Below, one piece after another: positions 8,539 through 36,062 of a DNA stretch of 64,000 nucleotides. How positions within the stretch are numbered: position 1 is the stretch's first letter; the number at the start of each line of letters is the position of its first letter. This stretch comes from Escherichia coli. GTDB lineage: Bacteria > Pseudomonadota > Gammaproteobacteria > Enterobacterales > Enterobacteriaceae. Under the pieces are notes generated by a model. The model worked only from the letters and a program-made list of their open reading frames with translations. It ran no database searches and had not been told where the DNA came from. The stretch lies in the NCBI RefSeq assembly GCF_003790525.1, contig NZ_CP033635.1; one strand, written 5' to 3'. A program made the translations under genes and the position numbers.

Positions 8539-10818
8539 ATGGATGACCAGTTAAAACAAAGTGCACTTGATTTCCATGAATTTCCAGTTCCAGGGAAAAT
8601 CCAGGTTTCTCCAACCAAGCCTCTGGCAACGCAGCGCGATCTGGCGCTGGCCTACTCACCAGGCGTTGCCGCACCTTGTCTTGAAATCGAAAAAGACCCG
8701 TTAAAAGCCTACAAATATACCGCGCGTGGTAACCTGGTGGCGGTGATCTCTAACGGTACGGCGGTGCTGGGGTTAGGCAACATTGGCGCGCTGGCAGGCA
8801 AACCGGTGATGGAAGGCAAGGGCGTTCTGTTTAAGAAATTCGCCGGGATTGATGTATTTGACATTGAAGTTGATGAACTCGACCCGGACAAATTTATTGA
8901 AGTCGTCGCCGCGCTTGAACCGACCTTCGGCGGCATCAACCTCGAAGACATTAAAGCGCCAGAATGTTTCTATATTGAACAGAAACTGCGCGAGCGGATG
9001 AATATTCCAGTATTCCACGACGATCAGCACGGCACGGCAATTATCAGCACTGCCGCCATCCTCAACGGATTGCGCGTGGTGGAGAAAAACATCTCCGACG
9101 TGCGGATGGTGGTTTCCGGCGCGGGTGCAGCAGCAATTGCCTGTATGAACCTGCTGGTGGCGCTGGGGCTGCAAAAACATAACATCGTGGTTTGTGATTC
9201 AAAAGGCGTTATCTATCAGGGCCGTGAGCCAAATATGGCGGAAACCAAAGCCGCATATGCGGTGGTGGATGACGGCAAACGTACCCTCGATGATGTGATT
9301 GAAGGTGCGGATATTTTCCTCGGCTGTTCCGGCCCGAAAGTGCTGACCCAGGAAATGGTGAAGAAAATGGCTCGGGCACCAATGATCCTGGCGCTGGCGA
9401 ATCCGGAACCGGAAATTCTGCCGCCGCTGGCGAAAGAAGTGCGTCCGGATGCCATCATCTGTACCGGCCGTTCCGACTACCCGAACCAGGTGAACAACGT
9501 CCTTTGCTTCCCGTTTATCTTCCGTGGCGCGCTGGACGTTGGCGCAACCGCCATCAACGAAGAGATGAAACTGGCGGCAGTACGCGCGATTGCAGAACTG
9601 GCCCATGCGGAACAGAGTGAAGTGGTGGCTTCAGCGTATGGCGATCAGGATCTGAGCTTTGGTCCGGAATACATCATTCCAAAACCGTTTGATCCGCGCT
9701 TGATCGTTAAGATCGCTCCTGCGGTGGCGAAAGCGGCGATGGAGTCGGGCGTGGCGACGCGTCCGATTGCTGATTTCGACGTCTACATCGACAAGCTGAC
9801 GGAGTTCGTTTACAAAACCAACCTGTTTATGAAGCCGATTTTCTCCCAGGCTCGCAAAGCGCCGAAGCGCGTAGTTCTGCCGGAAGGGGAAGAGGCGCGC
9901 GTTCTGCATGCCACTCAGGAATTGGTAACGCTGGGACTGGCGAAACCGATTCTTATTGGTCGTCCGAACGTGATCGAAATGCGCATTCAGAAACTGGGCT
10001 TGCAGATCAAGGCGGGCGTTGATTTTGAGATCGTCAATAACGAATCCGATCCGCGCTTTAAAGAGTACTGGACCGAATACTTCCAGATCATGAAGCGTCG
10101 CGGTGTCACTCAGGAGCAGGCGCAGCGTGCGCTGATCAGTAACCCGACAGTGATCGGCGCGATCATGGTTCAGCGTGGCGAAGCCGATGCAATGATTTGC
10201 GGTACGGTGGGCGATTATCATGAACACTTTAGCGTGGTGAAAAATGTCTTTGGTTATCGCGATGGCGTTCACACCGCAGGTGCCATGAACGCGCTGCTGT
10301 TGCCGAGTGGTAACACCTTTATTGCCGATACCTACGTCAATGATGAGCCTGATGCAGAAGAGCTGGCGGAGATCACCTTGATGGCGGCAGAAACTGTTCG
10401 TCGTTTTGGTATTGAACCGCGTGTGGCTCTGTTGTCGCACTCCAACTTTGGTTCTTCTGACTGCCCGTCGTCGAGCAAAATGCGTCAGGCGCTGGAACTG
10501 GTCAGGGAACGTGCGCCAGAACTGATGATTGATGGTGAAATGCACGGCGATGCAGCGCTGGTGGAAGCGATTCGCAACGACCGTATGCCGGACAGCCCTT
10601 TGAAAGGTTCCGCTAATATTCTGGTGATGCCGAACATGGAAGCTGCCCGCATTAGTTACAACTTACTGCGCGTTTCCAGCTCGGAAGGTGTGACTGTCGG
10701 TCCGGTGCTGATGGGCGTGGCGAAGCCGGTTCACGTGTTAACGCCGATCGCATCGGTACGTCGTATCGTCAACATGGTGGCGCTGGCCGTGGTTGAAGCG
10801 CAAACCCAACCGCTGTAA
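8539..10818 (+). CDS. maeB: NADP-dependent malic enzyme (malic enzyme domain plus PTA-like C-terminal domain)
   Basis: 759-aa ORF; N-terminal malic enzyme, C-terminal phosphotransacetylase-like domain. Confidence 0.92.
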
Positions 10819-10835
10819 TTCTTTTTTAACTCTCA

Positions 10836-10863
10836 CGCTTACCCTGAATATTCAGGGTAAGCG
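10836..10863. terminator. Perfect 28-nt palindrome downstream of maeB (putative terminator/insulator before eut promoter)
   Basis: cgcttaccctgaatattcagggtaagcg is a perfect inverted repeat; only a short T-run follows. Confidence 0.45.
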
Positions 10864-10879
10864 GTTTAGCTGCAATATA

Positions 10880-11110
10880 TTAGTAAAGTTTATTACTGAG
10901 TTTGCGAATAATAAAAAAAACAGTATATAAAATATCTCGATATTATTTTATTTATATTCATGCGTTGCATATGAAAGTTTATGCACCACAGCAAATATCT
11001 CTCCATTCTTAGTGATCTACCTCACCTTTTAAACGCGCTTGCCGAATTTTGTTATTTACTCTGACGAAATATTGTCACGATACACGAAAGTTTTTCACAG
11101 GCGGCGACTC
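10880..11110 (+). promoter_or_regulatory. AT-rich control region upstream of eutS (eut operon promoter region)
   Basis: Strongly AT-rich 230 bp immediately upstream of first eut gene; exact promoter elements not resolved. Confidence 0.35.
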
Positions 11111-11446
11111 ATGGATAAAGAACGCATCATTCAGGAATTTGTGCCCGGTAAACAGGTCACACTGGCGCATCTCATCGCGCATCCCGGCGAGGAACTGGCG
11201 AAGAAAATCGGCGTTCCGGATGCGGGCGCAATTGGCATTATGACGCTAACTCCCGGAGAAACGGCGATGATCGCCGGTGATTTAGCGCTGAAAGCTGCCG
11301 ATGTGCATATCGGTTTTCTCGACCGTTTTAGCGGCGCGCTGGTGATTTATGGCTCGGTGGGTGCAGTAGAAGAAGCGTTATCACAAACCGTCAGTGGTTT
11401 AGGTCGCTTATTAAATTATACGCTTTGTGAAATGACCAAAAGTTAA
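11111..11446 (+). CDS. eutS: Ethanolamine utilisation microcompartment shell protein EutS
   Basis: ORF trimmed to ATG 11111 ([21 protein letters not shown]); BMC-domain protein; first gene of eut cluster. Confidence 0.9.
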
Positions 11447-11458
11447 TACGAGGCATTC

Positions 11459-11938
11459 ATGAAACGAATTGCGTTTGTGGGTACCGTCGGGGCAGGAAAA
11501 ACAACGTTATTTAATGCGTTGCAGGGGAATTATACCCTCGCCAGAAAAACACAGGCCGTGGAATTTAATGATAAGGGCGATATTGATACGCCGGGTGAAT
11601 ATTTTAGCCATCCCCGCTGGTATCACGCCTTAATTACCACGCTACAGGATGTGGACATGCTGATCTATGTCCACGGCGCGAATGACCCGGAAAGTCGGTT
11701 GCCTGCCGGGTTGCTGGATATTGGCGTCAGCAAACGGCAAATCGCCGTCATCAGTAAAACGGACATGCCAGATGCTGACGTCGCCGCAACGCGAAAGTTA
11801 TTGCTTGAGACGGGCTTCGAAGAGCCGATTTTCGAGCTAAACAGCCACGACCCGCAAAGCGTGCAGCAACTGGTGGATTATCTGGCATCTCTCACCAAAC
11901 AGGAGGAAGCAGGTGAAAAAACTCATCACAGCGAATGA
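11459..11938 (+). CDS. eutP: EutP, P-loop GTPase/acetate kinase-like protein
   Basis: 159-aa ORF with Walker A GTVGAGKTT. Confidence 0.9.
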   Translation: MKRIAFVGTVGAGKTTLFNALQGNYTLARKTQAVEFNDKGDIDTPGEYFSHPRWYHALITTLQDVDMLIYVHGANDPESRLPAGLLDIGVSKRQIAVISKTDMPDADVAATRKLLLETGFEEPIFELNSHDPQSVQQLVDYLASLTKQEEAGEKTHHSE

Positions 11939-28862: not shown

Positions 28863-29438
28863 ATGAAATCGCTGCGTTTAATGTTATGCGCTATGCCGTT
28901 GATGCTGACCGGCTGTTCCACGATGTCGTCAGTTAACTGGTCGGCCGCTAACCCGTGGAACTGGTTTGGATCATCCACCAAAGTGAGCGAGCAGGGCGTG
29001 GGTGAATTAACGGCGTCCACACCACTGCAAGAACAAGCCATTGCTGATGCGCTTGATGGCGATTATCGCCTGCGCAGCGGAATGAAAACCGCGAACGGCA
29101 ACGTGGTGCGCTTTTTTGAAGTGATGAAAGGCGACAACGTGGCGATGGTGATTAACGGTGATCAAGGCACGATCAGCCGCATTGATGTGCTGGATAGCGA
29201 TATTCCTGCTGACACCGGTGTTAAAATCGGTACACCGTTTAGTGACCTTTACAGCAAAGCATTTGGCAATTGCCAAAAGGCCGACAGTGATGATAATCGT
29301 GCCGTCGAATGTAAAGCCGAAGGCAGTCAACATATTAGCTACCAGTTCAGCGGGGAATGGAGTGGCCCTGAAGGGTTAATGCCTTCGGACGATACCCTGA
29401 AAAACTGGAAAGTCAGTAAAATTATCTGGCGGCGTTAA
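28863..29438 (+). CDS. yfeY: Lipoprotein of unknown function
   Basis: 191-aa ORF with lipobox (LMLTGCS) after signal peptide. Confidence 0.85.
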   Translation: MKSLRLMLCAMPLMLTGCSTMSSVNWSAANPWNWFGSSTKVSEQGVGELTASTPLQEQAIADALDGDYRLRSGMKTANGNVVRFFEVMKGDNVAMVINGDQGTISRIDVLDSDIPADTGVKIGTPFSDLYSKAFGNCQKADSDDNRAVECKAEGSQHISYQFSGEWSGPEGLMPSDDTLKNWKVSKIIWRR

Positions 29439-35270: not shown

Positions 35271-36062
35271 ATGGGTAAACTCACGGGCAAGACAGCACTG
35301 ATTACGGGCGCATTGCAGGGAATTGGCGAAGGAATTGCCAGAACTTTTGCGCGTCATGGCGCAAACCTAATCTTGCTGGATATCTCCCCTGAGATCGAAA
35401 AGCTGGCGGACGAACTGTGTGGTCGTGGTCATCGCTGTACGGCGGTTGTCGCCGATGTGCGTGACCCGGCGTCGGTCGCCGCAGCTATCAAGCGTGCGAA
35501 GGAAAAAGAAGGGCGCATTGATATCCTGGTGAATAACGCAGGCGTTTGTCGTCTGGGAAGTTTCCTCGATATGAGCGATGAAGATCGCGATTTCCATATT
35601 GATATCAATATAAAAGGCGTATGGAACGTCACGAAGGCGGTGTTGCCGGAGATGATTGCCCGCAAAGATGGTCGCATTGTGATGATGTCTTCAGTCACTG
35701 GCGATATGGTGGCCGATCCGGGTGAAACGGCGTATGCCTTAACGAAAGCGGCGATTGTTGGCCTGACTAAATCGCTGGCGGTGGAGTACGCGCAGTCTGG
35801 TATTCGCGTTAACGCCATCTGCCCCGGATACGTTCGCACGCCAATGGCGGAAAGCATTGCCCGCCAGTCGAACCCGGAAGATCCAGAATCGGTGCTGACT
35901 GAAATGGCGAAAGCAATCCCGATGCGTCGCCTCGCCGATCCGCTGGAAGTCGGCGAACTGGCGGCCTTCCTCGCATCGGATGAATCCAGCTATTTAACCG
36001 GTACACAGAATGTGATTGATGGCGGCAGCACACTGCCGGAGACGGTTAGCGTCGGCATCTGA
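35271..36062 (+). CDS. ucpA: Short-chain dehydrogenase/reductase UcpA
   Basis: ORF trimmed to ATG 35271 (MGKLTGKTALITGALQGIG) with AGGAGA RBS; SDR motifs. Confidence 0.9.
   Translation: MGKLTGKTALITGALQGIGEGIARTFARHGANLILLDISPEIEKLADELCGRGHRCTAVVADVRDPASVAAAIKRAKEKEGRIDILVNNAGVCRLGSFLDMSDEDRDFHIDINIKGVWNVTKAVLPEMIARKDGRIVMMSSVTGDMVADPGETAYALTKAAIVGLTKSLAVEYAQSGIRVNAICPGYVRTPMAESIARQSNPEDPESVLTEMAKAIPMRRLADPLEVGELAAFLASDESSYLTGTQNVIDGGSTLPETVSVGI

Follow-up and report, generated by a model that had tools for sequence, protein, structure and literature searches.

Rho-dependent transcripts of E. coli have their 3′ ends marked and protected by stable stem-loops that lack U-tracts (Dar & Sorek 2018, PMC6061677). 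In Salmonella and EHEC, the eut P1 promoter works with EutR, a regulator of the AraC/XylS family, and a EutR footprint has been reported on a conserved element just upstream of the P1 –35 (PMC5821096; see also PMC4643982). Furthermore, the Salmonella eutS leader (–47 to +48), which is homologous to the E. coli leader described below, binds CsrA (PMC10433801). Analysis of the spacer between maeB and eutS in a 64-kb window (that is, the whole stretch of E. coli DNA that was analysed) indicated that the palindrome found there is probably an unannotated but ordinary gene-end hairpin, derived from a terminator, beside an already characterised promoter.

Compared to these and other described systems, the locus has several features of its own. 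First, the E. coli palindrome resembles enterobacterial intrinsic terminators in forming a stable stem-loop, in occupying the same place behind maeB, and in being homologous to an E. whittamii hairpin that is followed by T5. Compared to the maeB terminator of Citrobacter and Klebsiella, however, the E. coli stem is unrelated in sequence, longer, and 50% GC, with a tail of 1–4 T's and a negative terminator score. Second, it is similar to the Rho-dependent protective stem-loops (PMC6061677) in that it is stable, has no U-rich stretch, and stands at a gene end before a long untranslated region; the fit is imperfect, as the rut-like region in which C exceeds G does not follow immediately downstream and the role of Rho is a predicted one. 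Third, REP/BIME elements are also intergenic palindromes 3′ of genes that could block exonucleases, but the element studied here is single-copy. To our knowledge, the palindrome bears no sequence resemblance to REP. Finally, the locus shares with the eut P1 promoter of Salmonella and EHEC a nearly invariant 106 bp and an element upstream of the –35, and differs from it in that the palindrome and an AT-rich tract of 141 bp lie outside the conserved promoter and are missing in other genera.

The segment 10700–11250 is 100% identical to E. coli strain SC516 and has a match in 5423 of the 5426 complete E. coli genomes. In RefSeq, the matched records carry the 3′ part of maeB followed by the 5′ part of eutS at this segment, and both gene names used here were confirmed from the RefSeq annotation of E. 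coli records that are identical or nearly so. The same maeB–eutS arrangement is found in K-12 and O157:H7, and in K-12 eutS is followed by eutP, eutQ, and eutT. The intergenic spacer runs from 10819 to 11110, with the bounds given in the original prediction. Coordinates of the features are collected in Table 1.

Table 1. Features of the maeB–eutS spacer and its borders, with the number of variable positions among 13 E. coli sequences
Feature	Coordinates	Strand	Variable positions	Details and basis
maeB ORF	8539–10818	+		ORF list
maeB stop codon TAA	10816–10818	+		ORF list; RefSeq annotation of the 100% identical record
T-rich 17-nt stretch from maeB stop to hairpin, TTCTTTTTTAACTCTCA	10819–10835	+	4/17	
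28-nt perfect palindrome, predicted maeB 3′-end RNA hairpin	10836–10863	+	1/28 (terminal G10863A of K-12-type strains)	stem 10836–10847 with 10852–10863; loop 10848–10851
Eroded U-tract, GTTTAGCT	10864–10871	+		tail variants among E. coli strains
Escherichia-specific very AT-rich spacer	10864–11004	.	25/141	141 bp, single-copy
Promoter and leader	11005–11110		2/106	
Conserved eut P1 promoter core	11005–11063	+		cross-genus alignment and Salmonella sequence
Dyad aGTGATCTACCTCACc	11011–11026	+		abuts a weak putative –35-like TTTAAA/TAAACG, about 11028–11035
Invariant block TTGCCGAATTTTGTTATTTAC	11039–11059	+		includes putative extended –10 TGtTATTTA, 11050–11058
Predicted eutS 5′ leader	11064–11110	+		predicted start near A11064, from alignment and PMC10433801
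eutS	11111–11446	+		ATG at 11111; RefSeq annotation

The palindrome begins 18 nt past the maeB stop codon. Its arms, CGCTTACCCTGAAT (10836–10849) and ATTCAGGGTAAGCG (10850–10863), are 100% complementary with zero spacer, and the perfect inverted repeat that had been proposed is thus borne out. It is the sole zero-spacer palindrome with arms longer than 8 nt in the 64-kb window; in 200 dinucleotide-preserving shuffles of the window the longest arm was 6–12 nt, and an arm of 14 was never attained. As RNA, the palindrome forms a hairpin with 12 bp in the stem and 4 nt in the loop; its energy is about –20 to –22 kcal/mol (centroid –22; z = –4.2), and none of 200 shuffles folds equally well. The proposal that no strong U-run follows also holds: the tail GGTTTAGCTG contains three T's only, and a terminator scan makes no call. 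The E. coli hairpin falls short of the U-rich tract expected of an intrinsic terminator (at least about 5 U among the 8 positions directly 3′ of the stem). A literature search with the palindrome sequence gave no matches, and an Rfam scan of 10300–11700 by E-value returned chance-level matches only, all far under the gathering scores. A member of REP/BIME or another repeat family could be ruled out, with one locus per genome and no second copy in the window. A mobile-element remnant was likewise rejected, the element being single-copy in E. coli and unmatched both in other genera and in the rest of the window. At 29262–29277 and 35596–35611, the window also contains two perfect palindromes of 16 nt, TTTGGCAATTGCCAAA and ATATTGATATCAATAT; with 8-nt arms at shuffle level, they are probably due to chance.

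The 3′ end of maeB in other genera was compared using an EutS scan, which yielded 63 loci; of the 66 loci collected, 30 have maeB as the immediate upstream neighbour of eutS. The spacers of Citrobacter, Klebsiella, Pseudocitrobacter, and Yokenella typically measure about 153–160 bp and carry, about 20 nt past the maeB stop, a textbook terminator composed of GGCGCGGG, a loop, and CCCGCGCC, followed by T5–T7. Directly after this terminator, the block TTAGTGATC...TTGCCGAATTTTGTTATTTAC... extends up to the eutS ATG in all four genera. The position of the hairpin is the same throughout: the stop-to-hairpin spacers are of like length (17–20 nt) in all genera examined, and the hairpin begins 18–21 nt past the maeB stop in 35 of 35 scored sequences from five genera. 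On a d'Aubenton-Carafa-type terminator score with modern energy parameters, which serves as a relative measure only, the GC-rich hairpins from outside Escherichia that carry no inserted DNA received d-scores of +39 to +58, compared with –3 to –36 for Escherichia. The tail score T was 0.6–2.0 in E. coli versus 4.6–5.7 in other genera. The same scanner that skips the E. coli hairpin does call the Citrobacter terminator.

Some spacers in these genera are longer. Extra DNA stands exactly in or after the terminator T-run in Citrobacter sp. MGH106 (L027), C. amalonaticus S646 (L017), and K. pneumoniae ATCC 13883 (L030), where the spacers measure 284, 370, and 218 bp, respectively, as against the usual length of about 160 bp. 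In the K. pneumoniae strain, a T tail is lacking behind the first hairpin; another hairpin, with T5, comes after it. The point where the maeB terminator meets the eut promoter appears to be a recurrent target of insertion.

In other Escherichia, homologues of the E. coli hairpin are found. E. whittamii and Escherichia sp. E1V33 carry the homologue CGCTTACCCTGAGTAATTCGGGGTAAGCG, followed by ATTTTTAT (ATTTTTATATT), with a T5 tail and a terminator-like call. Escherichia sp. MOD1-EC7003 has the hairpin CGCTTACTCTGGATTATTCGGGGTAAGCG, followed by GTTTTATT. The sister Escherichia (L004, L005, and L006) show asymmetric substitutions, and the centre of the element differs in sequence and is 1 nt longer. 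Among the five distinct Escherichia hairpins, three stem pairs are altered on one side only, all three to G·U, and 98% of pair cells are still paired although the DNA dyad is broken. No two-sided compensatory changes were seen among these five hairpins, a number at which the shuffle control has no power. The G·U wobbles and the altered loop length are more in keeping with an RNA hairpin than with a DNA dyad bound by a protein, an indication that is supportive but not decisive.

Within E. coli, a BLAST search with a 40-nt query found the hairpin locus in 5409 of 5426 complete genomes, exactly once in each; the query gives two placements per genome, as the palindrome matches itself on both strands. 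For K-12, the matched site is 2580074–2580113 on the minus strand of NZ_CP025268.1. The 40-nt segment is conserved with 100% identity in 4046 of 5410 records (75%), and just 371 of 5313 records reach at least 99% identity over the AT-rich tract. The variable positions listed in Table 1 come from 13 E. coli sequences that were picked for divergence in the queried segments, so that the variability of the flanks is somewhat inflated. The tail differs between strains, with GTTTAG, GTTTGG, GTTTTCC, GTCCAG, and, in K-12, AGTTTAG (1–4 T's). L007 is a divergent lineage that carries the E. coli label; its hairpin is identical at 28 of 28 positions, while the stop-to-hairpin spacer is 82% identical and the AT-rich tract is 70% identical with 57 bp missing. 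If E. coli and L007 diverged by 25% here, 28 positions without a single difference would be expected with a probability of roughly 3 in 10,000. Because the hairpin is near-invariant in E. coli and L007 while its flanks diverge, it is under purifying selection, and the U-tract is not. This strong conservation suggests that the hairpin still matters.

Collectively, these results point to a terminator-derived RNA hairpin that ends the maeB message, acting as a weak terminator and/or an exonuclease block, and we consider this the probable explanation of the palindrome. The hairpin would descend from, and occupy the place of, an ordinary Rho-independent maeB terminator. Escherichia appears to have swapped the canonical maeB terminator for a different hairpin and an AT-rich spacer, after which E. 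coli seems to have lost the U-tract, keeping the 12-bp hairpin while the tract decayed to UUU or less. The hairpin may have two roles. First, it could act as a weak or partial intrinsic terminator of maeB. Second, it could block 3′-to-5′ exonucleases and so define and stabilise the end of the maeB mRNA. Residual read-through from maeB would be stopped further downstream, possibly by Rho. Either role would separate the constitutive transcription of maeB from the inducible eut operon. Since the U-tract falls short and drifts, classical intrinsic termination at the E. coli hairpin is probably weak, and it is doubtful in strains with GTCCAG. The sequences themselves establish the anatomy of the hairpin, its orthologous position, its homology to an element with a complete terminator tail, and the constraint on it. 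From this comparison, we infer both that an RNA end forms at the hairpin and the route by which transcription would terminate; maeB and eutS are absent from the supplementary data of PMC7815308, PMC12207403, and PMC6131387, which were searched for 3′-end and start-site data. The original prediction had held that the palindrome could be a protein-binding or insulating element as much as a terminator. The two are not equally likely: an RNA hairpin is favoured over a protein site because of its terminator position, the anatomy of the E. whittamii element, and the retained RNA pairing, and such a terminator-derived hairpin would itself insulate eut from maeB. One point against an RNA hairpin is that the invariance of the loop and the perfect dyad, both seen in E. 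coli and L007, are not needed for one. That the symmetry runs perfectly through the loop is probably incidental rather than required; template switching that corrected a quasi-palindrome, for example, could have produced it.

The 247 bp of DNA 3′ of the palindrome are 32% GC and consist of two unlike parts. The first, 10864–11004, is 26.2% GC and is the most AT-rich 141-nt stretch of the window (window mean 52.8%), compared with 40.6% GC for 11005–11110. These AT-rich 141 bp are missing from Citrobacter, Klebsiella, Pseudocitrobacter, Yokenella, and Salmonella and have no counterpart elsewhere in the window. Compared to other Escherichia species, the tract is 68–71% identical, and it is the fastest-evolving and least conserved part of the spacer. 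Open reading frames in the spacer measure only 27–45 aa, lie in fast-evolving DNA, and include none that is convincing. A structured RNA in the AT-rich tract was considered and set aside, as the fold z-score is only –1.0. A literature search for H-NS at the E. coli eutS upstream region yielded nothing specific. The AT-rich tract thus looks like a lineage-specific, weakly constrained spacer, whose role, if it has any, could be spacing, nucleoid-protein binding, or buffering of read-through. A conserved island, TTCATGCGYTGCATATGAAAGTTTAT, is present in the tract at 10956–10990; it contains the imperfect dyad TGCATA-N8-TATGCA, is common to E. coli, MOD1-EC7003, E1V33, and E. whittamii, and is deleted in L007.

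The composition of this tract also bears on a different account of how maeB transcription ends. In this account, an ancestral intrinsic terminator would have been replaced in Escherichia by a protective stem-loop and an AT-rich spacer in which Rho, possibly with the assistance of nucleoid proteins on the AT-rich DNA, ends transcription. The hairpin would only stop exonucleolytic trimming, and the proposal overlaps with the explanation favoured above. In its favour, the hairpin is stable and has no U-tract, as in the class of PMC6061677, and it is conserved whereas the tail is not. The 247 nt after the hairpin are untranslated and include a rut-like region, 10924–11083, in which C exceeds G. 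The C/G ratio is 1.6–2.6 in 80-nt windows starting at 10924–11004. However, this region overlaps the eut promoter and is not immediately downstream of the hairpin: in the first 60–80 nt G equals or exceeds C, with C/G ratios of 0.6–0.9 in 80-nt windows starting at 10864–10904. Furthermore, the AT-rich spacer is poorly conserved, as seen in the 57-bp loss in L007. Termination by Rho with a purely protective hairpin is therefore a possible but tentative alternative.

Far less support can be given to a DNA operator, in which a dimeric regulator bound to the 28-bp dyad would control eut or act as a roadblock to read-through. The dyad is perfect through its centre, which an RNA hairpin does not need, and neither loop nor stem varies in E. 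coli and L007, in contrast to the changeable U-tract. Several observations argue in the opposite direction. First, the element is single-copy, with no second site found in 5,426 genomes at the sensitivity of BLAST. Second, the centre of the dyad is about 214 bp upstream of the predicted eutS start. Third, in sister Escherichia the symmetry is broken and the spacing of the arms is increased by 1 nt, and the RNA pairing is kept. Fourth, genera that share this eut promoter and EutR lack the element, and its place 3′ of maeB is the exact place of the terminator in other genera. The half-site spacings presumably do not fit the consensuses of E. coli operators (Cra, ArgR, LexA, and others) either, which further counts against an operator. 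Taken together, an operator is very unlikely. A broader alternative, namely that the palindrome has been kept for some DNA-level reason, as an operator or a cruciform-prone insulator, or else that maeB switched to Rho-dependent termination by means of a protective hairpin and spacer, is also judged improbable; a DNA-level reason would explain the invariant centre alongside the drifting U-tract.

Template switching is a mutational process known in E. coli to perfect quasi-palindromes, and together with the eroded and variable U-tract it would suit a functionless relic, that is, a decayed terminator made into a perfect palindrome by a template-switch mutation and persisting by chance; this reading is scarcely probable, as the palindrome shows 0 of 28 differences between E. 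coli and L007 despite 18–30% divergence of the flanks, and within E. coli it is far less variable than either flank.

Insertions have also occurred in the E. coli spacer. IS1 has inserted independently in three E. coli genomes, in the region that matches 10813–10920 of the window: L072 (NZ_CM136153.1, 1501–2580), L002 (NZ_CM132277.1, 4095–4900), and L078 (NZ_CP172152.1, 1501–2300). One of the three copies interrupts the right palindrome arm and is accompanied by a duplication of 9 bp, CAGGGTAAG. Another is fused to the last codons of maeB, and eutS and the 5′ part of eutP are deleted. The remaining copy is at about 10920, and the DNA on its eut side differs. An intact maeB–eutS spacer is missing in about 2% of E. 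coli genomes (128 of 5423).

The AT-rich DNA before eutS had been proposed as the site of eut promoter control. This holds for its last 106 bp, 11005–11110, which are conserved across genera and match the reported position of EutR; it does not hold for 10864–11004, which is absent from other genera and is the least conserved part. The comparison with other eut promoters that had been suggested showed conservation of 11005–11110 from Escherichia to Salmonella, and in the cross-genus alignment this segment is almost invariant across Escherichia, Citrobacter, Klebsiella, Yokenella, and Salmonella. The eut control region would thus be the proximal 106 bp, separate from the hairpin and from the very AT-rich tract. 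The roles given in Table 1 to the individual elements of P1 (the –35-like element and the extended –10) are putative assignments. A sigma-70 promoter scan of 10300–11600 found nothing, and no sigma-70 call is expected because the promoter is activator-dependent. The dyad at 11011–11026 resembles the half-sites of CRP, and its cross-genus invariance is the only evidence for that site. A CRP site was examined there and rejected on the match itself: it has 2 mismatches, and the window contains 24 such matches versus 24.5 expected from shuffles, so that the match alone is no evidence.

In Salmonella enterica subsp. arizonae and diarizonae (L008 and L009, positions 1–1500), no maeB is found within 1.5 kb upstream of eutS, and a divergently oriented ORF begins about 310 bp upstream of eutS. 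By its N-terminal sequence, this ORF looks radical-SAM-like. Homology of these two loci with E. coli starts abruptly at TTCTTAGTGATC, which is the left edge of the eut promoter block in Citrobacter and Klebsiella.

Transcription of eutS is predicted to start near A11064, because the Salmonella CsrA probe starts at –47, a position that matches A11064. The predicted leader contains a direct repeat, with copies ACGAAATATTGTCAC at 11064–11078 and ACGAAAGTTTTTCAC at 11084–11098, offset by 20 nt. The sequence AAATTGyCACGAT, which is invariant across genera, overlaps the first of these copies.

For E. coli, these results mark where the maeB transcription unit ends and where the eut control region begins, with little reach beyond annotation. 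For studies of the eut promoter, they direct the focus to 11005–11110 and not to the AT-rich tract. The insulation of eut from maeB matters in principle: read-through from maeB could raise the basal level of EutR, because eutR ends the eut operon and activates its own operon. The locus also provides a clean, small case in which a terminator has been replaced and its U-tract is eroding in one genus, with the hairpin still under selection, and this case could lend itself to testing the function of 3′ ends that have only a hairpin.
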